Source: Sporopachydermia quercuum
Lineage: Eukaryota
Direction of reading: 5' to 3'
Length of the DNA stretch: 64,000 bases
Assembly (NCBI GenBank): GCA_001599295.1
Contig: BCGN01000006.1
Location: forward strand, 682,001-746,000
Shown: positions 28,233 to 64,000 of the stretch, in pieces
How the letters are laid out: the number at the start of each line of letters is the position of its first letter
Numbering within the stretch: position 1 is the stretch's first letter
Made by a program: the position numbers and the translations under genes
Notes under the pieces: generated by a model
Told to the model about the DNA's origin: nothing
What the model saw: only the letters and a program-made list of their open reading frames with translations
The model's database searches: none

Positions 28233-30791
28233 CTATGTAGTCCATAATCTACAAGTACCATCAGCACCACAGCTAAACAACCATGCTTCTCTTGGATGCC
28301 AGACAGTCTTCATTATACCAAGAGAATTGATAACAGAATGACCCTTAAGTATCTTCAAAGGGACCAACAACGGATTTGTCATCAAATCATCATACACAGT
28401 TGCATGGAAAATATTGATATTACCATCATCTGATGCTGAACAAAATAATGGTAATCCGTTTTTATGGAATGCAACATCGCGAACAGCCTTTTCGTGATAA
28501 CGAAGCGTTTTGTAGGGTTTATCACTAAGATCTAAATCATGCCATATAACTCTTTTATCGTAACTTGATGCAATAACATTATCACCGAGAGGGTGAATAT
28601 CAAACGTGCTTAACCATCTTGCTCCTGGTAGTAATTTCTTACTAAGAACTTGTTGCTGCAGATCATAAATACGGATATATCTTTGAGTAGCAACATAAAG
28701 GTGAGGTCTGAAGGGATGGAATTTAGCCTGTTGAACAATACCTCTTGATTTTCTAAAAGGTGATTGGGAAGAATGTTTGGATAACTGGTGAATCAAAACA
28801 GCTGTGTTTGCAGCTTCAGGACTAACAGTTACAAAATAATCACCTTTTCTGTGCCAGGAGAACTGTTTGACAGTTCGTTTCAATTGAATAACTGCTGCCA
28901 AACCCTTGTCAACTTGCTTAGTATTTGTTGGTTTGATCCAAACACCAGGAGATGATCTAGCAGTTGAAGTTGTGGCCGACTTTTTGCCCTTAGAAGATGT
29001 AGTTTCTTCATCACTATCATCATCATTGTCATCGGCTTCATCATCAGGCTTAACGCTACCACCAGAAACGTTATCACCAAAACTCCAACCTGACTCAATC
29101 TGTGATTGACCAGTTGTTATAATCTCCAAATCCCATATAGTAGGAACAATCAAAAAAACATTGTTGCCAGCAGTTACACCAAGTATACCATTACTACTAG
29201 AATCGGGGTTCCATTCTAAAGCATCGACATTATCCTCCTCGTTTTCACTCTTCTTAACTAAGTGCATTTTCCATACTTCACGACCAGTGAGTACTTCCCA
29301 TATACGAACAGTACCATCGTCACCACCAGATGCAAGCCATTGACCAGTTGGATCAATGGATATTGACCTAACTTTACCTTTATGTCCTCTATAGATAGTT
29401 GAACATTTAATAGGGAAAGGCCGTAAATCCTGTGGTGATGGTAACTTTGGTATCAATGATTCAGGATCAATATTCAGTTTGTTTTTACGTACTCTAGGTG
29501 CTAGATATAAATCCAGAGAACGCTCGAACCTTTCTCTTACTGCTTCAGAGTAGCCAGGAACCTTTCTTAAAGACCCAAACTTTCTTGGTAAGAAATCACG
29601 CTCTCTATCTTGAGGATCTGTGTTTTTCCATTCTTCTTCCTCCTCTTTTGAAAGTAGATATTCTTCAGGAGGGTTATAACTTTCCTCATTAGTAGGTAAA
29701 GGTAATTTAGGAGCAGGGATATGCATTACATGATCGGGCATGTCATCAGCATTATCACCCCAAATGTCATACATATTAGAGAAGTCGTCTTCATCAGGAG
29801 TCTCGGGCTTATTAGGGACAATTCTACCATCTCTAATAGCACGTACAATTTTCATGATCCTCTTTGCCTCATGTTTAGAAGGAACAAATCGCCTTTTTGG
29901 TTCAGGAATAGCAGTAACAGGCATAACAGATGTCTTACTAGTGAACCATTCAATTGTTGGTTCATATGGATTGATATCTTCGTCAGGATTTTCTTTTGTT
30001 TGAATTTTCTTGATTAGATTTAATTCCTCTTCAGTAAGTTTTAATGACGTACCAGTGTTTTGATCCAACAAACCTGTCCATCCTTCAGGGATATCAATTG
30101 TTTCTAATAATGCATCAAGAGCTGAACCTGTTGCTGGTCTCATAATACGTTTACCATTAATACTATAACCTATATGAGGATACTCGTCGTAAGCTGATAA
30201 AGGAATATTTCCAATCGTATTTGGTTGTTCAACGTCAGAATCATCAGAATCATAAATTGGTATAATCTCTGGTCTTATGGGTCTCAACTTTCCGTCTGCT
30301 CCTGGAATGTATTTAGTAACGGAGTCAACCGATGAATCGGAATCAACATCTTCCGGTTCAGAGTTGAACACGGATTGTTCAGTTTCTTCGTCTTCAAACA
30401 GAAATTCACCTACATTTTTATCAGCTTCAATCTCTTCTTCGTCTTTTTCTTTATCACCTTTTTCAATTCCATCCTGTTGGTCGTCTTCCTCTTCATCTTC
30501 TTCACTTTCTTCTTCATCGCTTTCTGATGGATCAATTAGATTGCCTACATCAAACGATTCATCTTCTGAATCTTCAAGTTCATCTGAGCTTTCAATTTCC
30601 TTTTCTTCATCTTCTTCAAAATCTTCATCCTCTTCGTCCTCGTTGTCCTCTTCAAGCTTTTCGTTCTTCCATTTTCTTATTGAGGTTGAATCCTCCTTTC
30701 CCGCATTNTTCTTATCATTCAAATTAACTTCTTTACCCCCATTGGTCTTCTTCACTTGTTTCACTCCGTTTCGTGTTCTTTTTGAACCCAT
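28233..30791 (-). CDS. ERB1: Ribosome biogenesis protein Erb1/BOP1
   Basis: Acidic N-terminus, [60 protein letters not shown]40 C-terminus. Confidence 0.97.
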
Positions 30792-30962
30792 GATGAATCA
30801 AAGAGTCAATTTAACAAGACAATGCAAGGTTTTTAGTCTCGATTGAAAACAATACTCCTCTCTCAACAGATCTTTCATCTATTCATTATCTATTCTTCAC
30901 TATGTGTACAAACAAACAATCTCTCATTCTTTATGCCAAAAAACTCATGGCTCATACAAATC

Positions 30963-39600: not shown

Positions 39601-40037
39601 ATGTCGTCATTACTACGAACCCCAAGCAGGAGCCGATTGTTGCAAGTGATGAAGAAATCGTGTGAGGTCTTTGATCAGAATTTCAACCCAACAAATGAAA
39701 GAAACGGTGCTAAATACTTGAGAAAGCATTTAAAGGGCCCGAGTNTCGCACAATATTATGGCCCATTGGATTTCCCTAGATTTTCATCNATAAAAAGGCG
39801 GTTGCCTCACCTCAATCTAGTTGATAGAGATCAAGAGTATAAGGATAATCTTAACAAGGCGTATGTTACTATTTTAAGTCTCNTGAGGAAATCTTTGATG
39901 AACAATGCGATTGTTGTTAATAGCAAGTACATAATCTGTTGAATTAAGGTACTAACAAATGTAATAGACGATTTGAAAGAGGAAAGGGTGCTCCTAAGAA
40001 GGTGAAGAAGAGTAAAGATGATAAGAAGAAAAAATAG
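39601..40037 (+). CDS. RSM27: Mitochondrial ribosomal protein mS33; exons 39601-39860 and 39968-40037
   Basis: SCEVFDQNFNPTNERNGAKYLRKHLKGP..AQYY; spliced tail RFERGKGAPKK; GTATGT at 39861, TACTAAC, TAG ending 39967. Confidence 0.92.
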
Positions 40038-40409
40038 ACAGCGAATGACATCGAATGATAGAGAGTAACTTTTTTGATGCAGTGTTTCGTAAAATGCTAA
40101 ATATGAACAAAATATGAAGCAAATAGTGTGAGTCACAGTGTAGTTTGGAGGTGTTATGTATATATTTCGTTTTTAACGTGAAAGAAACCAATAGCTCTGG
40201 GCTAGTGGTTATATATGAGTCTCATTTCTTCAGTAAGGGAGATGACATTGGTTTCTATGTTATGATAGAGGAATGCATTGTAAGTTAATATTGACCTTAT
40301 TGTAATATACAGATTGTAGCAGGATGTAATATGAGGAAATAAATAACCTAGCATCTGAGAACGAGAATAGAACAGGATAAAATAAAACAGAATACCCATT
40401 CTTATGAGT

Positions 40410-42599
40410 CTAAATTTTGCTCCTTTCTTTATAGGAGTATTGATTCAGTCTTGTCCGCAGTTCCTGTAATGATACCCTTTCTTCAGGCAACATTGAGTAG
40501 AGAAAACTATAGAAATTCCTTCTTGGTATTCGAATTAACGTGCCAGTGACCAATTTTCCAATTGTAGATGTGGATAAATAGTGCTCTCTCAATCTATAGG
40601 CCAGTTCAAAGTAAGACTGGAAGATCAATGGGTAGCTTAATGGAGTGCTCTTCAAGAACAAGTAAACAGGTTTTTCTATGTCAGCGACAGTATTATCAGT
40701 TTTATTATTCGGAGAGCCATTCTGACTATCAAAGACCAAATCAAATTTAATTCCCCCAGGAATTCTATTAGAGTCCTTCAGTCGCAGTAACACTACAAAT
40801 AAAGGAAAGTAGTTCAGACATGTTAAAAAGGTTTCCAGTAATGCGTTTGATAGCATCACAATGCATCTAGTGATAGCAAAAGTGAGATAAAATGTCATTA
40901 CGGTAGGAAGAAGAAAAAGTAGCAAAGTGAAGAAAAGAGTTCCTAAAAGAATTTGATCCAGCTCGTAATTACATGAATCGATTCTTTTCCTCAGTATATT
41001 CTTCCGCTTGCCACGAAACATATGAAACAAAGAACTTAACACCTCCAATTGCCAATGATACAATCGAGCACCTGCCACATAATAACTGTATATATGCAGT
41101 GTGAGAATTGATATACTATCAGAAATAATCGACAATGACAGTGTGCAGCCACCACACATAGCAACAAAGGCAATGAAGTTAATTAGATTTGGTATCATTG
41201 GTTTAAATGCCACATTGATGCAATCTCTCCAGAACTCCAAGACCCACAAAAACAATTCACCAAAAAATCCCGCTAATTCGTTATTCAGCTTCAAACCTGC
41301 TGGCCAATCCATTAACCACAGAGTTAATCGTCTCAACCCATCAAATAGAATACCGTCAATGAACCAGTTGATGTTCCCAACAATAACATCTTCTCCACTC
41401 TTCATCTGATCAGAGATATAGGTTCCAAAGGCTATTCCTAGTATTATATCATTCACAACAAGCCAGAGTGTATTGTATAATACAATATATTCAGGATATA
41501 TGCTTAAATAACAGTTCTTCTTTTGACGAATGGTTTCAAATTCAGAATTGCCATCTCTATATTGAAAAATACCTCGTGATGTATTAATATATCCTACGGG
41601 CCAATAGCAAAACTGCTGGAGTCTCAAATCTATCTGTAATGCTGTTGCTGAAATATCTTTCAAAGGAAAGAAAGCGAAATCGTTTCCTTCACCAGTCCAA
41701 GGGGTCCATTCCAAGACGATAAGTATCACTTCGGCGACGATTCGAATTGCTAGTAACAAATTATGTACTAACGGTTGAAACCATGGTGATGTCAAGTAGT
41801 TTCCGGCGAGTTTCAACTCGTTGAAAACGTACTTCACACAGGCAATCCAAATTGCACTTTTGTTGTTTTTAGCATAGTTCAGTATGGGATGCTCATACTG
41901 TATGATCTGTCTTGTATGATGACACAGATTAATCTCATGAATACACCATTCCAATGATTGCTCTTCCGGTGAAAGATGAAAAGGAAATGCTTGTAAATGT
42001 ATTCTTTGAGGATCTTTTGATACTTCTTGCTGGTTTGATGTGGTGGATAATTGAAACTTTATAGGAGTGATTGAATAATATTGAAGGTATCTTGCTTTAG
42101 GTGGAATATACCTCACGATTTGTAAATTCTTATTTCCTATGATAGTTGGTGTTGATGAAGCTGTACTATATGTGATAGTCGGGATGTCATTTTGAAAACT
42201 TTTAGGATTCTGAGCCGAATTTATTGATATGATTGCTACAACACTAAAATATGGGAATGTTGCTGCTTCTCTTTCATTTCGTTTTCTGCTTGCTGATGAC
42301 TTCGTTACTGATTTGACTGGTGATTTGCTTGATAGACTTTTATTCTGTAGCTCACTCAATGCTAAGATATCAGTCGCCTTGTAACCATTAGACAGTTTAT
42401 TGAAATTACTGTTGATAAACTTCTTGATTTCGGATGCCTTGCAAGGTATCACATCTATTATCACTATATCATGAATACTATTGATCCAGCCAATAGCTAT
42501 AGCATATGATGTTGATGATGGTGATGATGATGATGTAGATGCCGAAGACTTGATCACCACATCTACATCCTCAGGCCAAAATATTCGTTTGAGGTCCAT
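40410..42599 (-). CDS. GPI1: GPI-GlcNAc transferase subunit Gpi1 (PIG-Q)
   Basis: RIFWP, LKDISATALQIDLRLQQFCYWP, WLMDWPAGLKLNNELA, LFHMFRGKRKNILRKRIDSCNYELDQILLGT. Confidence 0.95.
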   Translation of the reverse strand: MDLKRIFWPEDVDVVIKSSASTSSSSPSSTSYAIAIGWINSIHDIVIIDVIPCKASEIKKFINSNFNKLSNGYKATDILALSELQNKSLSSKSPVKSVTKSSASRKRNEREAATFPYFSVVAIISINSAQNPKSFQNDIPTITYSTASSTPTIIGNKNLQIVRYIPPKARYLQYYSITPIKFQLSTTSNQQEVSKDPQRIHLQAFPFHLSPEEQSLEWCIHEINLCHHTRQIIQYEHPILNYAKNNKSAIWIACVKYVFNELKLAGNYLTSPWFQPLVHNLLLAIRIVAEVILIVLEWTPWTGEGNDFAFFPLKDISATALQIDLRLQQFCYWPVGYINTSRGIFQYRDGNSEFETIRQKKNCYLSIYPEYIVLYNTLWLVVNDIILGIAFGTYISDQMKSGEDVIVGNINWFIDGILFDGLRRLTLWLMDWPAGLKLNNELAGFFGELFLWVLEFWRDCINVAFKPMIPNLINFIAFVAMCGGCTLSLSIISDSISILTLHIYSYYVAGARLYHWQLEVLSSLFHMFRGKRKNILRKRIDSCNYELDQILLGTLFFTLLLFLLPTVMTFYLTFAITRCIVMLSNALLETFLTCLNYFPLFVVLLRLKDSNRIPGGIKFDLVFDSQNGSPNNKTDNTVADIEKPVYLFLKSTPLSYPLIFQSYFELAYRLREHYLSTSTIGKLVTGTLIRIPRRNFYSFLYSMLPEERVSLQELRTRLNQYSYKERSKI

Positions 42600-44189
42600 C
42601 AGCTACCAGTTGTTTCAATCCTACAATGTAAAAGTATCTATCAGGTGTGTTGGTATGCTGCCTCGATGAATGTTTGTATTCTAGTATCATACCATGCAAT
42701 TGATCAATAACTCGGTGATTGCACCATTCCAATTCCACTCTTGTATTGAGTTAACTATAAGATGAGTGAGTAATTGTACACAGTTCTTTTCAGAAAACAA
42801 ACTTAGAATAATATTCAGTTGATACTATCAATATGAATTTTAGTAATTCAAGGAAATAAATACATCTGATAATTGAGCTGTTGCTCAGAAAATGCCAGAC
42901 AGTCAAATCAAATAAGCATTTTGGTGAATGTATAAATATGTAATAATATGCATGTTCCTGTGTTATGTTTATTTAACATGTATGAAGTTGAAACATTTCT
43001 TATCAGTGGAGCATTCTGTCAGCATATGTCAATTGATTATCGAAATAAGCCTGAGGAAGTGAATGTGTTTTATTGAGACTTTTAGAACTTGTTGATGACT
43101 GAAAACGAAATAAAAGAGCAAGGCAAGATTAGAAACCCGCTGAATTTCGTAGGTTTAGTTGACTTGGTGAGANATCTGAAGAGTAGTTCTCGGTTCCTCG
43201 ATTCCTATCCACATCAATGTGAAGAGAAGCAAGTACTAGCCACGAGCTCAAGCATCGTATATACTGAAATGAAGCGAATAGTTGGAAACATGAGAGCCAA
43301 ATAATGGCTGTACGAAGGAAATCAAGTCAGGTAGCTGNAAGTCTTTCTTAGTTCAAGCTTTCAGTGTTCTTCCATTTAATGAATTCAACTAATTGAGGAA
43401 TCTGAAGATTTTAGAATTCTTTGATGATTCAGTTAGGGTTTGAACGATTTCTTTCATAGACACTCTTTGAACGCTATACACAGGAATGTTACAATAGAAG
43501 AGCAAAAGTACATTTATTATATGATAAATAATAATACTACTAAATAAAGTGCAAATCATGCTTAGATTAACTGATATTAAGCTAGTAATAAATTAATGAA
43601 ATAGAGATATTTCTGCTGAGTTTATATGTACACATGTTGAAAATTGAATCCAGCTAATATCCCCAATAAGCAATTATTCAAGATAAAATTTAGAGGTTAC
43701 CGGGTATTAAAGTTAAGCATTACCTAAACCCGAAACAGTGCTTGAAGCGTGCATGTTGCACCAGCATGATTAACTTCTACAGAACTCATGATACACGATA
43801 CATGATGATACATTATTGCTATTATATTACTGATGTTCTCAGTCAATAACGAATGAGTAGGGAATAAATGCAAAATTCAATCCAATCACCCCATTTACTG
43901 TTGATTAATGTCTCATTCTTTCATTCTTTCATTCAGTATAATAACAGCAAAAACCCAAAAATCGGTTTCTTCAACTCAGCGTGCTCCTAGAATACAAATT
44001 ACATTATACAAATTTCTCATATGCCTTTACTTTCAAGTTTCATTGCCATTAAATCTCTCTGCCTTTCCTACCTTTTCCCCGCTCACCAACATATTACGTA
44101 TAATTCAAACATCTCATCTCTTCCAACAAAATTGCAGGAATCTACCACATCGAATGTATTTAACACATCCACTTATGCAAAATTCTCTT

Positions 44190-57401: not shown

Positions 57402-59735
57402 ATGAATGAACCAACCATCAAGATCGAAGAGTTAACAAATGAAGTATCAAAAATTCGATTCAGCAAAATATGTCACTCATGGAAGCATATTAAACTGAAC
57501 TACCCCTTTTTTGATTCTCTTAGATCAGAAGTTACCAATGGCCGATATATGGATAGATACAAAAGGACTGATCATAGCGTTGAGCAATTGAATCTTATCA
57601 ATGAAGGAAGCAGAGGGCTGTTATGGAAAGTATGTTAAGATGAGATGATTAAAAAAGGGATAGTATCTCATTATTAATGGAATCTTTATCTACGTTTATT
57701 TTTCAGCTTGTATAAAATTGAGAATTATACGTGATAGACATTTGATTTTGGGTGATTGTGAATACCTGTTATATTAACATATCAATCATTAGATATTTCT
57801 ATGTTTTCAGTCATTTGATTTCGCAGTTTGGAAGAAAACATTGTCACAAGAAAGGTCTGCTTATGAATCATTAAAAGAGAAATATCGACCAACCCTTCTT
57901 ACAGTTAGATCATCTGATGATAGCACTACCAGTAGGACCAGTTTATCTGATCTCGATGACAAGGTCGAAGATGACTTAATGGGATCCTTTCAATCAGTCA
58001 ATATAGCTGAAGAATCAAGTGATTTGTTAACAAAAGAAGTAAGTAGAGATATTCAAACGAAGAGAAATGACGATAGAAATCTAACCTATCATAATACTAA
58101 CATACTATTATGATAGTGGTTTGCTAGCAATGCTGAAGATGATAGGATTGCGAAAGAAATCATGCAAGATATAGACAGAACCTTTCCTGAGATACTTTTC
58201 TTCAGAAACAAGTCGATTCAGCTCATGATGTTAAATATTCTATATATATTTGCCAAACTGAACCCAGATTTAGGCTATAGGCAAGGTTTACATGAGATAC
58301 TGGGTCCGCTAATATATGTTATGCATAGTGAAGCAATACTTGCTGATTCGATCAAGGACTATAGCAACACGACAAAGCTATCAAACGAAGATCTGAAAAC
58401 CTTGGAATACTGTTTTTTATCACAATATGTGGAGCACGATGCATATATGCTTTTCATGGTGCTAATGAGAACCATGAAACCATGGTATGACTTTAACTTA
58501 GTACCTTTAGTTCAAGGCAGTGTGAAGTATACAGAAAATGGACCGNCTATATGCTCACCGGTTGTACAGAAATCAAGATACATTCAGCATGTACTATTGA
58601 GAAAGACTGATGTGATGCTAGAAAGAGCTTTCAGAAGATTAGGTGTTGAATCCGAAATTTGGGGAATGTGAGTATTTCATTTGTTGCATTTTAAGTTGAT
58701 TATTAGCATATATATACTGACCTATTTTTTAGCCGTTGGCTGAGACTGTTATTCGGTCGTGAATTTGGATTCAAGTACTTATTCTCCTTATGGGACTCAT
58801 TATTTGCTTATGACAGCCAATCATTGAGCCTTGTTGACTATATAAGTGTAGCCATGATGATCCGAATAAGGAATATAACCAAATCAGGTGAACAAGATGA
58901 TATTTTACACGCTTTGTTGAAGTATCCTTATGATAAAACTGAGCCTTTATCAAAATATGTAACAAATGCTATATATCTAAGGAACCACTTAAATCCCGAC
59001 GGTGGCAGATTCATTATTAACCAGTACAAGGATTTGTTCAAAAATGGTTCACCNATACCTCAACAGCCTATAAAGCCTCTTGAGACATCTTTCTCTAGCT
59101 TAACTAAGATGATAAATGACAGTGATGGCACAGTAAAGAAAATGAGCAAACTGGTCAACGATGTGAAAGCCAAATCAATGAAGCAATTGAGTAGATACGG
59201 TACTAAAGCTTTAGAGAAGTATATAGAAGAACAGGAGCAGACTATCAAGCTTAATGAAACAAGAAATATGGTACTAGGGGAAGTATTGAAATCATGTATA
59301 AAGACCATAAAGAAAGTGAGAGATGATGTAGATGGTACGAATGAAGAAGAGTATGTGAACAGCGTCAAGGGATTGAATCATGTGTTGGAATGTTTACTTG
59401 ATAGCTCATTACCACCTGACTCTTCATTTCTATCAAAGGCGATCAAAGAGATCGCAGTTGAAGAGAAAAGGAGTGCTAAGATACAGAAAGATTTAGAAGA
59501 AAATGATGATAGCAAAGAAGAGAAAGAAGGAGAGCTGGACAAACATACTATAGGAAATGAGGATCCATTGTTAGGACTTGTATCAGAAGATTCGACTGAA
59601 ACTCAAGTGTCAAGAATATCAAATTCCAGGCGAAAAATCAGACATTCAAGAGAGTTGAGTAGATCAAAGATAGTCCATTCTTCTAGTCCAACACCTGGAT
59701 CAGGATCAGATTCTGTTTCATCAGCTCGTGGTTAA
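57402..59735 (+). CDS. GYP6: TBC-domain Rab GTPase-activating protein (Gyp6/TBC1D5-like); exons 57402-57629, 57793-58038, 58117-58667, 58733-59735
   Basis: Spliced RGLLWK|IFL, IMQDIDRTFPE (R finger), YRQGLHEILGP (Q finger), WGI|RWLRLLFGREF; donors GTATGT, GTAAGT, GTGAGT; all junctions keep frame. Confidence 0.85.
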
Positions 59736-60910
59736 TGTTTAATGGTGTAATAGTGATAATACTATATCTTTTCAAGATCGATATAAGAAAAATCAATGAA
59801 ATAAGAGGTATCCCACTCGAAGTATTGGATCAAAAAAGCAATTTATTCATCATAAGTAATTTTCCCCCTCTTTAGCATCAATAAAGATTTCACTGTTGCA
59901 AAGTCAACACTTCAGGGGTAGCATAGATTATGAGCCAGTGGCCGGTGGGTCATAGTCGATACCTATTTCTGTTCTTAAACTACCAACTCCATCCTATTTC
60001 CATCAAAGACTACAGAGAACCATTTGATTAACTAAATGTGCTATTATTTCACCTCTCAATACACAACAAGCTGTCACGTTAGTGACACAGGTACATCAGA
60101 TAACATAGTACAATACCATGATACCAATTCATTGTATGTCAGTATGGATGAAAGTCCACGTAGATAGGTTGAAATTGAGTTGTGAGAGCTCAAGAAGCTA
60201 AAATATTTTGGTAAAAATACATTTTTGATCCTGATATATGCTCCTCAAAGAGTTTGATACTATATGCGTAGATTCTATCAATTGAAAACAGGTTGTAGTA
60301 TCAAGTATACAGATAGAAATCTAGTGAGCTACGAATGAAAACTATTGACATATATATGTGGTGACAGAAACACGATGTCTAGCTCCTGCTCTCTTGGTTG
60401 TTTCCGTCGTCGTTTCTTTAAATAGTTGATTATGATTATCATGGCAACGCCTCTGTAAAATAGTTATGGGTTAATCTAGCGCACGTGCGTTTCTTATCAA
60501 AATAGTTACTTGTTTTGGAATTCCTTCCTTCTGATTACATTGTTTCTAGAAGCATGTTACCTTTCTGGAATATTTTCCTATCTTTCTACAAACTCGTTGG
60601 CGCGTGACACAGGGTGGCTTCAGTATCTAACATTACCCTAGAAAATCTCATCTCCGTCGCATTCCGGCGGGTACCGTTACCGTCAATAGCCGAAACTTTA
60701 GTTTTGAAATTGAAGGAAAACGAATAATCATTTACTATTTATTGTGTTTCATTTTTCTATCCCTTTTTCTTTTATTTTTTTTACTGATATTAAAGATAGT
60801 GAACTGGTTCAAACAGAAGACAAAAAACATAACCTTTTGGCTGAGGAGCAGCTAAACTTTTAGAGCATATAACACTAATAGACAATAGAGAATCGCCAGA
60901 TATTTATTCT

Positions 60911-62065
60911 ATGGCGAAGTTTGCAGCTCTTTTTTCTTTTATTTCCTCTTCTTTTTTTGAAATACTTGAAAGTAAACACACTCCTAGAACAGACATACTC
61001 TTTGCTGCTGGCTCGTATTATTGGACTTCAAAAGAAGGTGTCTCACCGTCCATAACGATTGATGGCTCAAGCTTTGACACCGAACCTGAACTTCAGATTG
61101 TTCCAAAAAGAACGAATCAGTTCAAGTTTCCAGGTTTTATTTGTAAAGTAAACAGGATTCAAGAATTCAAAGAATTCGACCGATCAAAGTTAGTAGAAGA
61201 AGTGTTGAGATCAACACTAATCGACCCGTTAGAGAACAATATTAATGAGATTCTGAACGATCCTTCGAAGCTCAATATATTCCTTTTGCTTGTATTCTGT
61301 GATCTGAAGAAGTTCAAGTACTATTACTGGTTTGCGTTTCCTACGCTTGCTACTAAATGGACGTTGGAGGTGCTTCATAAATCAACATATAGTCTTGATA
61401 TTCATGATGGCCCTCTGGCAAATACAATCCGACAATATTTGGTGGATATGACTAGTATTGATGTACGGCAGAAAGGTTTTTTTCTGATACGTGAAAGTTT
61501 ATTTGGTAATGAGAGAGGTGAATGGGAGGTATCTCCATTGAATGAATTCACTGATGACTACTGGAAGGAAGAAACACCAATAGTAGGATTCATTGATTCA
61601 AGCACTATTCCTAATGCGCCATCATGGCAACTGAGGAATTTCTTGACACTATTAGTATATTTGGGGATCCAATCAGTAAACATTGTATGCTTCCGTGATG
61701 TAATTGATACGCAGCATGCTGGTGATCCCAAAACAATTGTTTTAGAGGCAAGATTGAACGAACCTGAAGATTCATATAATACAGGGAATGGGCTAGGAAA
61801 GGTTATACAGGGATGGGAAAAAACACATGATGGAAAATTGAGACCCAAAGCAGTTGATCTAGGAAAGCTCCTTGATCCCATTCGGCAAGCCGAGACAGGA
61901 ACCACATCCTTCTACAGAAGGAATAATTTGTATTTAAAAGCAAAGAATTTCTGGACGAGAATTTATCGGGTGTTTCTTAACAATTCAAATTCTTTGGTGG
62001 AAGAGACAAAAAATTCTCTTTTTTTGTTGCCAAGTATCCCTGATACATTTGGTGAACAGTATTAA
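60911..62065 (+). CDS. Atg7 N-terminal-domain-only paralog (384 aa, no adenylation domain or catalytic Cys domain)
   Basis: N.IQEFKEFDR, DLKKFKYYYWFAFP, FIDSST..NAPSWQLRNFL, GWEK...GKLRPKAVDL...LDP, then an unrelated 56-aa tail; uninterrupted ORF. Confidence 0.85.
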   Translation: MAKFAALFSFISSSFFEILESKHTPRTDILFAAGSYYWTSKEGVSPSITIDGSSFDTEPELQIVPKRTNQFKFPGFICKVNRIQEFKEFDRSKLVEEVLRSTLIDPLENNINEILNDPSKLNIFLLLVFCDLKKFKYYYWFAFPTLATKWTLEVLHKSTYSLDIHDGPLANTIRQYLVDMTSIDVRQKGFFLIRESLFGNERGEWEVSPLNEFTDDYWKEETPIVGFIDSSTIPNAPSWQLRNFLTLLVYLGIQSVNIVCFRDVIDTQHAGDPKTIVLEARLNEPEDSYNTGNGLGKVIQGWEKTHDGKLRPKAVDLGKLLDPIRQAETGTTSFYRRNNLYLKAKNFWTRIYRVFLNNSNSLVEETKNSLFLLPSIPDTFGEQY

Positions 62066-63707
62066 GCTGTTTCATAGCAATTTAATGTTTTTTCTCTTTC
62101 TTAATGAGTATCTTATTTTCTTATCGTCCTGCATGCCTCACATACCAACGGTTTACGTATTCCCAATGGACAACATCTAGCATAATGCAAATCTTACAGA
62201 TAGAAATGGCGAACATCCATTATATATTCACTTCTTGTTACTCGAATTTATTAAATAAAAGATTTAAGTCATGATTTCCATTCTTTGGTGTTCCAGAGAT
62301 AAGCCGTAGCTGAATGCTTATCATCACGTGCGTGTTGGTTACCTAACTAGGCTGTTCCGGTCATTTAGTACTCACACACACTCCTCGTTTCTTTGGCAGT
62401 TAGTTATCTTCGAGCACAAATGGACCACAGTTGTACTCCCACATAATCAAGGAACAAACAGAAGTATTAGACAGCTCATATCTATGTTATTAGATAAAAC
62501 TGATTATCAGCGGAAATATAATGCCTAAAGGAAAAGCGTAGGNGTACACGGTAAAACAAGTAAGCGAGTTAAACTGGGCACGCAATCATCATTGTGTCTC
62601 TGAAAGTCTAGGAATCTCATTGATACACCAGCAAACCAATCAGTATTGACATCAACAGTTTGGAAAAGAAGCAAACTGCTGGTGACAAATAATGGAGACC
62701 AAGATATCGGATCAAGTGAAGTATGCTCCTATTTTCTCTTATGCTACCGCACCATTTTTCTCAAAATTGTCATCGAAAAAACTAAATGAATTCAAACTGA
62801 AATCTTCATTGATTCCTATTACCGGCAACTATAACTGCCCAATAACCAGCGACTCGAGTCCTTCTATCACTTTGGATGGCAATAGTTTTGAAAATGATCT
62901 NGGTGTTGAGTTTTGGAGGGAAAATTTCAATCTACTCTCATTCTCGGGGTCTGTTTACGTAGTAAACACAATTGANGAATTCAAAGAATTCGACCGGTCA
63001 AAGTTAGTAGAAGAAGTGTTGAGATCAACACTAATCGACCCGTTAGAGAACAATATTAATGAGATTCTGAACGATCCTTCGAAGCTCAATATATTCCTTT
63101 TGCTTGTATTCTGTGATCTGAAGAAGTTCAAGTACTATTACTGGTTTGCGTTTCCTACGCTTGCTACTAAATGGACGTTGGAGGTGCTTCATAAATCAAC
63201 ATATAGTCTTGATATTCATGATGGCCCTCTGGCAAATACAATCCGACAATATTTGGTGGATATGACTAGTATTGATGTACGGCAGAAAGGTTTTTTTCTG
63301 ATACGTGAAAGTTTATTTGGTAATGAGAGAGGTGAATGGGAGGTATCTCCATTGAATGAATTCACTGATGACTACTGGAAGGAAGAAACACCAATAGTAG
63401 GATTCATTGATTCAAGCACTATTCCTAATGCGCCATCATGGCAACTGAGGAATTTCTTGACACTATTAGTATATTTGGGGATCCAATCAGTAAACATTGT
63501 ATGCTTCCGTGATGTAATTGATACGCAGCATGCTGGTGATCCCAAAACAATTGTTTTAGAGGCAAGATTGAATGAACCTGAAGATTCGTACAATACAGGG
63601 AATGGGCTAGGAAAGGTTATACAGGGATGGGAAAAAACACATGATGGAAAATTGAGACCCAAAGCAGTTGATCTAGGAAAGCTCCTTGATCCCATTCAGC
63701 AAGCCGA
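61163..63707 (+). repeat. 731-bp direct repeat (61163-61893 and 62977-63707, offset 1814) shared by the two ATG7 copies
   Basis: By-eye alignment shows 5 substitutions and no indels. Confidence 0.95.
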
Positions 63708-64000
63708 AGAAGCTTCAGAGCTGAATGTGAAACTAATGAAATGGAGAATGGCTCCTGAATTAAAGCTAGATGATATATTCTCCAGGAAGTGTCTCTTGTT
63801 AGGAGCAGGAACTTTGGGTTGTAATGTGGCCCGTAATCTTTTGGCTTGGGGTGTGAAACATATTACCTTTGTTGATAATGGAAATGTAAGTTTTTCTAAC
63901 CCTGTTCGTCAGTCATTATTTACCTTTGATGATAGTGTACATGGTGCACCCAAAGCTNAGGCTGCTGCTGAAATGTTGAAGAAGATTTTGCCTACTGTAA
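62692..64000 (+). CDS. ATG7: Autophagy E1-like enzyme Atg7; 5' part only, runs off the right edge
   Basis: Manual translation: METKISDQVKYAPIFS..PFFSKLSSKKLNEFKL, N-terminal domain, then LNVKLMKWRMAPEL, KCLLLGAGTLGCNVARNLLAWGVKHITFVDNGNVSFSNPVRQSLF. Confidence 0.95.
   Translation, partial: METKISDQVKYAPIFSYATAPFFSKLSSKKLNEFKLKSSLIPITGNYNCPITSDSSPSITLDGNSFENDXGVEFWRENFNLLSFSGSVYVVNTIXEFKEFDRSKLVEEVLRSTLIDPLENNINEILNDPSKLNIFLLLVFCDLKKFKYYYWFAFPTLATKWTLEVLHKSTYSLDIHDGPLANTIRQYLVDMTSIDVRQKGFFLIRESLFGNERGEWEVSPLNEFTDDYWKEETPIVGFIDSSTIPNAPSWQLRNFLTLLVYLGIQSVNIVCFRDVIDTQHAGDPKTIVLEARLNEPEDSYNTGNGLGKVIQGWEKTHDGKLRPKAVDLGKLLDPIQQAEEASELNVKLMKWRMAPELKLDDIFSRKCLLLGAGTLGCNVARNLLAWGVKHITFVDNGNVSFSNPVRQSLFTFDDSVHGAPKAXAAAEMLKKILPTV

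Follow-up and report, generated by a model that had tools for sequence, protein, structure and literature searches.

A partial ATG7 paralog limited to the N-terminal domain beside ATG7 in Sporopachydermia quercuum: an old duplicate with a core that appears to evolve in concert with its parent gene

We analyzed a 64,000-nucleotide (nt) stretch of the yeast Sporopachydermia quercuum (assembly GCA_001599295.1, contig BCGN01000006.1, positions 682,001 to 746,000 of the forward strand), hereafter the window, in which a partial paralog of the autophagy gene ATG7 lies upstream of ATG7 itself. All coordinates count from the first letter of the window. An earlier interpretation made from the letters alone (the sequence-only reading) had described a stop-free open reading frame (ORF) of 384 aa about 630 bp upstream of ATG7 and in the same orientation. 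This description is accurate: the frame contains no internal stops, and 626 bp separate its stop codon from the ATG7 start at 62692 (Table 1). In Pfam analysis the 384-aa product matched ATG7_N over residues 4-320 (profile positions 3-308 of 309, 1.5e-55, 189.4 bits with a cut-off of 27) and no other family, ThiF being absent, while the downstream ORF matched ATG7_N (4e-67) and then ThiF (3.6e-23). Based on this domain content the downstream ORF is ATG7 proper, with 436 aa visible before it runs past the window end, and the upstream ORF is a copy of the N-terminal domain (NTD) only, which agrees with the earlier claim that the whole NTD is covered and the catalytic half absent. BLASTP between the two products gave 269 identities over 334 positions, and the likeness stops after LDPI(R/Q)QAE, at the LDPIxQAE motif where the sequence-only reading had seen the two proteins diverge.

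Table 1. Features of the paralog and ATG7 region, in window coordinates
Feature	Position	Strand	Remarks and basis
Partial ATG7 paralog ORF	60911..62065	+	384 aa plus stop, Atg7 N-terminal domain only; ORF list, Pfam, AlphaFold, PDB matches
Unique diverged N-terminus of the paralog, 84 codons	60911..61162	+	Protein comparison, shuffles, pLDDT, family columns
Core repeat, upstream copy, in the paralog	61147..61893	+	Near-identical DNA to ATG7; read as a gene-conversion tract
57-codon tail unrelated to ATG7, plus stop codon	61894..62065	+	No likeness found; pLDDT
Upstream region seen only in the window haplotype	59711..60849		At half depth in S1; not covered by X3
Segment in opposite orientation in the second haplotype	60850..62313		Contig joint of 60850 to 62313, with 140 other letters between
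Spacer, 626 bp: likely 3' end signals of the paralog and ATG7 promoter	62066..62691	+	Motif positions
ATG7 proper, first 436 codons: N-terminal domain and ThiF start; cut by window end	62692..64000	+	ORF list, Pfam, contigs
Core repeat, copy within ATG7	62961..63707	+	DNA alignment

When four full-length outgroup Atg7 proteins were used as tblastn queries, no match was found beyond 61903 until ATG7 near 62704, and no relic of the catalytic half was detected in 61894-62691. According to the accessible text of the sources, a short linker connects the NTD of Atg7 to its C-terminal half, both E2s are recognised by the NTD, the catalytic cysteine resides in the adenylation domain (PMC13712035), and the dimer contacts are located in the C-terminal half (PMC13712035, PMC8255673). 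The paralog ends 57 codons past its last Atg7-like residue, in a tail that is unrelated to Atg7 and predicted to be disordered, and so has neither the catalytic cysteine nor the homodimer interface. Since the adenylation domain, catalytic cysteine and dimer interface are all absent, the paralog, as judged from its sequence, is not an Atg7 enzyme. Standard translation applies, because CTG codons of ATG7 fall on conserved Leu columns of the family (at four of the seven such codons, 48/50, 47/50, 44/50, and 50/50 sequences have L). We also rejected the idea that the copy is spliced into ATG7, as 60801-63100 contains no GTATGT, GTAAGT, GTACGT, or TACTAAC.

Structure prediction, which the sequence-only reading had suggested as a check, gave the expected fold. 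An AlphaFold model built on a 52-sequence alignment has a mean pLDDT of 81.3 and a pTM of 0.81, with residues 1-333 well ordered and modelled as the Atg7 NTD; taken in blocks of ten, the first 80 residues score 93, 95, 84, 93, 95, 81, 68, and 95. In a Foldseek search the 16 best listed PDB chains (ranks 1-17) were all Atg7 (E 5e-21 to 1e-16), with a TM-score by target of 0.73-0.82 for the NTD-only chains and of 0.82 to the Arabidopsis Atg7NTD of the Atg7NTD-Atg3 complex. This fold test is not independent of the sequence match, because the model leans on the Atg7 alignment. In yeast Atg7, residues F93, K94, W139, and P283 form the pocket for the helix of the Atg3 flexible region, as given in the accessible text of PMC8255673. 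All four are present in the paralog, where they map to F86, K87, W140, and P311 (by alignment to the yeast chain, with a numbering offset of +2); all lie inside the near-identical core described below and are identical in the species' own ATG7. By profile, predicted fold and mapped pocket, the paralog is a member of the ATG7_N family. PDB entry 4GSJ is by its title a K14A F16A D18A mutant of the yeast Atg7 NTD; the stretch falls within the diverged first 84 residues of the paralog, and we take the first ~20 Atg7 residues to have an E2-contact role.

The paralog is a mosaic, a structure that the sequence-only reading had not described. Its core and the ATG7 core (61147-61893 and 62961-63707) are 747 nt each with 9 mismatches including one N (~99% DNA identity), and within 61163-61893 only 5 mismatches in 731 nt were found (99.3% identical). 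The 243 core codons differ by four synonymous, third-position changes and one non-synonymous change (R326/Q), giving dN 0.0018 and dS 0.026. This is the sole repeat of at least 60 nt in the 64-kb window, and local alignment found no DNA alignment between the paralog and ATG7 in the flanks of the core. The first 84 residues had been called homologous to ATG7, strongly diverged and kept in frame, and each part of that description stood: the two proteins agree at 26 of 82 aligned residues, the local protein score is 96 compared with 26.1 +/- 4.7 (maximum 45) in 500 shuffles (z = 15), and the frame is kept in both of the haplotypes described below. Compared with ATG7 this N-terminus shows dN 0.72-0.82, dS 1.05-1.37, identity by codon position of 0.49/0.57/0.44, and a single internal indel, a four-codon gap. 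In 3-6 columns per outgroup the paralog has the outgroup residue where ATG7 does not. The ATG7 core repeat has an isolated N at its 5' edge (62976).

We then compared contigs from three public runs over 59500-62900. X1 and X2 are from sample S1 (study P1) and X3 is from sample S2 (study P2); all are DNA contigs, that is, k-mer paths, and the tandem and inverted orders given below are thus contig-based, with the second haplotype (haplotype B) read from the differences and contig pieces among those listed. Sample S1 is heterozygous here. Contigs common to both forms have a depth of 85-97, one of which ends at 59710 (depth 97.2), and three contigs exact to the window have about half that depth: 59681-61136 (51.1), 61854-62121 (47.5), and 62199-62474 (51.3). 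The first links the upstream gene to the paralog N-terminus, the second the end of the core to the tail, and the third the tail to the ATG7 promoter. A further loose contig end at 61893 continues into ATG7 sequence. With two entries into the repeat and two exits, the tandem order is the sole linear path. The second form is represented in X1 by a 551-nt contig at depth 38.1, which follows the opposite strand of 60850-61136 with 34 other letters and 4 gap letters (~88% identity) and, after 140 other letters, enters the ATG7 promoter from 62313. The same opposite-strand joint of 60850 to 62313 is present in all runs, X1 (38.1), X2 (11.2), and X3 (depth 31.6). X3 contains the second form only: a 1247-nt contig at depth 31.6 runs from the reversed copy N-terminus through the spacer and the ATG7 promoter into the ATG7 N-terminus, and a contig at depth 28.9 continues into the catalytic part of ATG7. 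No X3 contig covers 59500-60849 or 61894-62312 at a likeness threshold of 88, from which we draw no inference.

Haplotype A thus carries the copy in tandem with ATG7 and haplotype B carries it inverted, head-to-head with ATG7. The tandem pair of the sequence-only reading is therefore correct for the window haplotype, while the other haplotype, the only form in the second sample, has the copy in the opposite orientation. It is shown that the paralog is real DNA, present in two samples from two studies and in two arrangements. The paralog-type N-terminus is found in both haplotypes, in versions ~88% alike in DNA and each ~50% like ATG7, and the duplication must thus be older than the haplotype split. 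Together with the N-terminal dS of ~1.0-1.4, the separate version in the second haplotype bears out the earlier view of an old duplicate, not fresh debris. The results show an old partial duplicate of the promoter-proximal part of ATG7 up to the NTD end, in which the first 84 codons evolve independently. In the source sample this locus is heterozygous, with two deep haplotypes; ~1.1 kb (59711-60849) is found at half depth only, and the second haplotype also carries an 18-letter replacement of 62366-62423.

In X3 the core is represented by one contig of 614 nt (61217-61830) at depth 58.1, with its unique flanks at 31.6 and 28.9. The core depth is double that of the flanks, and one contig therefore stands for two copies. 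This X3 core and the window core have different letters at 26 of 614 positions (~4%), and in S1 ~45% of the core depth (102/226) carries the X3 letters; the haplotypes were phased by contig depth, not by long reads. Ten listed core differences between haplotypes hit nine codons, eight of them silently. The two cores differ by 5/731 or nothing within a haplotype and by 26/614 between haplotypes, beside a dS of 1.05-1.37 outside the tract. Cores that are closer inside each haplotype than from one haplotype to the other, bordered by old diverged flanks, indicate recurrent gene conversion (concerted evolution) that keeps the central 730-750 nt 99-100% identical to ATG7. The ~99% identical core shows ongoing gene conversion with ATG7, and most of the paralog's intactness is therefore borrowed from the parent gene. 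The earlier description of the copy as intact is right as to the open frame, which is largely explained by gene conversion from ATG7. The tract ends may vary: the reverse-strand piece of X3 reaches 61246 and has 25 more differing letters than the S1 piece ending at 61136, and in the X3 strain the conversion tract seems to begin ~100 nt further in. The ATG7 promoter and N-terminus (62424-62900, 477 nt) differ by only 0-5 letters between haplotypes and the ATG7 core by ~4%, mostly silent; a divergent core beside a near-identical ATG7 flank would also be in keeping with conversion running from the copy into ATG7.

Outside the tract, the unique N-terminus provides the evidence on whether the paralog is still a gene. 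The window version has no stops or frameshifts in 84 codons. The haplotype B version, as read from the listed differences, has no stops in 76 codons and a net insertion of 3 nt, and 63 of 75 residues are identical to the window version. Between the haplotypes pN is 0.074 and pS 0.199 (ratio 0.37, Fisher P = 0.012). Among 4000 copies simulated neutrally from the ATG7 N-terminus, 3.7% (K = 0.3), 0.8% (K = 0.55), or 0.55% (K = 0.8) were stop-free; the simulations are substitution-only, and frameshifts would push this share lower. As the unique part is open, its indels are in frame, pN is below pS and the NTD fold fits, the paralog may still be a protein-coding gene, a proposition that we consider about evenly balanced.

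The tail at 61894-62062 and the spacer showed no likeness to ATG7, to the C-terminal halves of the four outgroup Atg7 proteins, or to the upstream region of the copy. The spacer contains TATATA at 62221, AATAAA at 62254, and CACGTG at 62325. CACGTG is also found at 60482, so that the two sites lie 429 and 367 bp before the copy and ATG7 starts; the motif is too short to argue for shared regulation. Paralogy of the two upstream regions was tried and rejected, with a local score of 16 compared to 14.0 +/- 1.8 (maximum 22) in 100 shuffles.

Two explanations would remove the old duplicate altogether. One holds that the window is an assembly artefact, in which haplotypes or misplaced reads were joined as a false tandem around a single real ATG7. 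The sample is indeed heterozygous and the window carries 86 single N, the 747-nt near-exact repeat cannot be spanned by short reads, and no contig runs across the whole stretch. The tandem order is found only in sample S1, and X1 and X2 are possibly the source data of the window assembly, which speaks against treating them as separate confirmation of our reading. The diverged N-terminus, however, is not an allele of the ATG7 N-terminus (26/82 identical) and occurs in contigs of two samples from two studies; the half-depth contigs tie the paralog parts exactly to their neighbours, the two entries and two exits of the core leave the window order as the sole linear path, and the X3 core has twice the depth of its flanks. 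We regard an artefact as very unlikely. The other explanation takes the copy for a recent partial duplication, fresh debris whose near-identity reflects youth, as a 99.3% identical core with dS 0.026 would suggest at first sight. It has even less to recommend it, since the adjoining 84 codons have dS > 1 compared with ATG7 and the upstream DNA has no likeness, the second haplotype holds the same paralog-type N-terminus at ~88% DNA identity, so that the copy predates the haplotype split, and the cores show more differences across haplotypes (26/614) than inside one. We consider a recent origin scarcely credible.

A more serious alternative accepts the old duplicate and takes it for a non-functional relic, with the core open through ATG7 overwriting and the N-terminus open by luck or after a recent loss of constraint; any effect would then be indirect, the copy being a conversion partner that passes occasional variants into ATG7. 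The following observations weigh against a working gene. If ATG7 keeps overwriting the core, which is 99-100% identical to ATG7 within each haplotype, the open frame of the core requires no selection of its own. Constraint on the unique N-terminus is weak and uneven. Its dN/dS relative to ATG7 is 0.5-0.8, and it has 10, 13, 16, and 10 unique changes with respect to the four outgroups, where ATG7 has 6, 6, 5, and 3 (2-3x fewer). Of 25 conserved family columns (>=60%) the paralog retains 12 and ATG7 16, and four near-invariant residues are gone: a K (49/49) is now H23, an L (86%) is T24, an L (96%) is deleted, and a T (94%) is R82. The substitution check that the sequence-only reading had proposed for this part gave a mixed answer, in which the overall pN/pS of 0.37 (P = 0.012) points to constraint, whereas codons 1-37 alone give a ratio of 0.49 (binomial P = 0.17, not significant) and the low ratio of codons 38-75 is based on four differences. 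The tail, which that reading had treated as a second region fit for marking function, is a poor marker: residues 334-384 have pLDDT below 50 (predicted disorder), and it differs between haplotypes, a second contig form in S1 skipping 61846-61993 (148 nt) with indels at 62028 and 62042. Because of this skip and the small indels, the C-terminus of the paralog is not conserved. The start codon has T at -3 (A in ATG7), a poor context, and both the orientation and the upstream DNA of the copy vary between haplotypes. The difference of ~4% in the ATG7 core, compared with 0-5 letters in the N-terminal 477 nt, also fits a copy that acts as a donor to ATG7. On the other side, the 84 unique codons are stop-free in both haplotypes with all indels being multiples of three, an outcome reached by 0.55-3.7% of the neutral simulations at K = 0.3-0.8 with frameshifts uncounted; pN/pS between haplotypes is below one at a significant level, and the N-terminus is predicted with high confidence to fold into the NTD. 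We judge the relic a real possibility, falling somewhat short of an even chance. The explanation we favour, an old duplicate that includes a free docking domain, has as a whole roughly one chance in two of being right.

An exhaustive protein search returned 718 matches at E <= 0.001, one of them at E <= 1e-30, with a best identity of 35% and no close relative. A second, word-indexed protein search gave six matches with a best identity of 35% and again no close relative. The closest named sources of protein matches were Saccharomycopsis and Wickerhamomyces. Short protein matches (lengths 175-450) were not counted as NTD-only genes, as they are indistinguishable from cut gene models.

If the favoured explanation of an old, still coding duplicate is correct, the product would be a free, monomeric E2-docking domain followed by ~50 disordered residues, with no ATP site, catalytic cysteine or dimer interface. 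Such a free NTD could hold Atg3, and perhaps Atg10, and would be unable to load an E2, to activate Atg8 or to join the Atg7 dimer. According to the accessible text of PMC8255673, Atg8 on the C-terminal half of one Atg7 subunit is passed in trans to Atg3 on the NTD of the other subunit. Because the transfer occurs in trans across the dimer, a free NTD would bind Atg3 without loading it. Competition is the most likely effect, in which Atg8 lipidation and Atg12 conjugation would be damped or buffered in proportion to paralog expression. We consider the decoy step itself rather doubtful, and the full proposal of an expressed free docking domain that titrates Atg3 and/or Atg10 and sets the gain of both Atg8 lipidation and Atg12 conjugation slightly more doubtful still. 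The diverged first 84 residues could shift the preference between Atg3 and Atg10, and gene conversion would keep the decoy pocket matched to that of the working enzyme. Expression could differ between the two arrangements, the tandem form having its own 1.2-kb upstream region and the inverted form a ~580-bp two-way promoter in common with ATG7, and the two could persist as a balanced structural polymorphism. Neither Atg3 nor Atg10 was found by Pfam among the 19 other ORFs of the window.

The crystallised Atg7 NTD fragments (3T7F, 3RUJ, 3VX6, and 3VX8; PF16420) offer the closest structural comparison. They share family, fold and pocket residues with the paralog and end where its likeness ends, just past the linker. 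Unlike these fragments, the paralog is a separate natural gene copy with a disordered, unrelated tail of ~50 residues, and its first 84 residues are 32% identical to those of its own Atg7 and lack four family-conserved residues. Catalytically dead relatives in the ubiquitin system, such as E2 variants without the active cysteine, act by binding. The supposed logic would be the same for the paralog, with the binding surface kept and the chemistry lost, its function being putative. The accessible text of PMC13712035 describes ATG7(2), a short splice isoform in mouse and human that lacks an exon needed for ATG8 binding and is unable to lipidate LC3/GABARAP. Like the paralog, ATG7(2) as described there is a natural ATG7 variant that has lost the E1 reaction and kept the NTD; it arises from ATG7 itself through exon skipping and retains most of the catalytic half, whereas the paralog is a separate locus without the whole catalytic part. 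Within the accessible literature ATG7(2) is the nearest documented natural analogue. We found no E1 docking-domain regulator of this kind in the literature checked, and no partial or NTD-only ATG7 paralog in accessible titles and abstracts; the words 'paralog', 'duplicat', and 'truncat' do not occur in the accessible text of the 2026 ATG7 review (PMC13712035).

As a genomic arrangement, the pair belongs to a more familiar class, being a partial duplicate in concerted evolution with its parent, and is unusual for the domain that has been isolated. Concerted evolution between a gene and a neighbouring partial copy is a general phenomenon, and most such partners are plain pseudogenes. The present pair shares with them the 99-100% likeness within a haplotype and ~4% difference between haplotypes, the sharp tract ends and the old flanks. 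Unlike most, its paralog is open and in frame outside the tract with a pN/pS of 0.37, and it occurs in two orientations in one species. Atg7 is the sole entry to both autophagy conjugation systems and its NTD is the only handle for both E2s. If the paralog is truly a natural NTD-only gene, autophagy conjugation would have a ready-made competitive inhibitor. Even if inert, the copy would provide a small, clean example of a partial duplicate that escapes decay through rewriting by its parent, of conversion that perhaps runs both ways, and of one copy held in two orientations within a species.

The remainder of the window is unremarkable for a fungal chromosome arm, and 18 of the 19 other ORFs have Pfam families; its genes include Utp11, Utp15, Sld2, Kti12, Erb1/BOP1, Gpi1, a Zn2Cys6 factor, an ammonium transporter, and a cation-efflux protein. 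The window has no tRNA genes, and these were dropped as candidate hot spots of rearrangement. Single N letters occur 86 times in the window, about once every 744 bases, and never in runs; these may mark heterozygous or low-quality positions. The N-free stretch 59055-62542 was rejected as a sign of haplotype divergence, as similar gaps are found elsewhere (for example, 39883-43173). A 189-codon ORF at 30277-30846 (+), antisense to the BOP1/Erb1-like gene at 28233-30791 (-), is probably a chance frame. Upstream of the paralog, a RabGAP-TBC gene is seemingly split into two ORFs, 58162-58671 and 58854-59735 (+), ~180 bp apart; only the first has a Pfam match (3.6e-14), and an intron, a frameshift or a sequencing error could explain the split.

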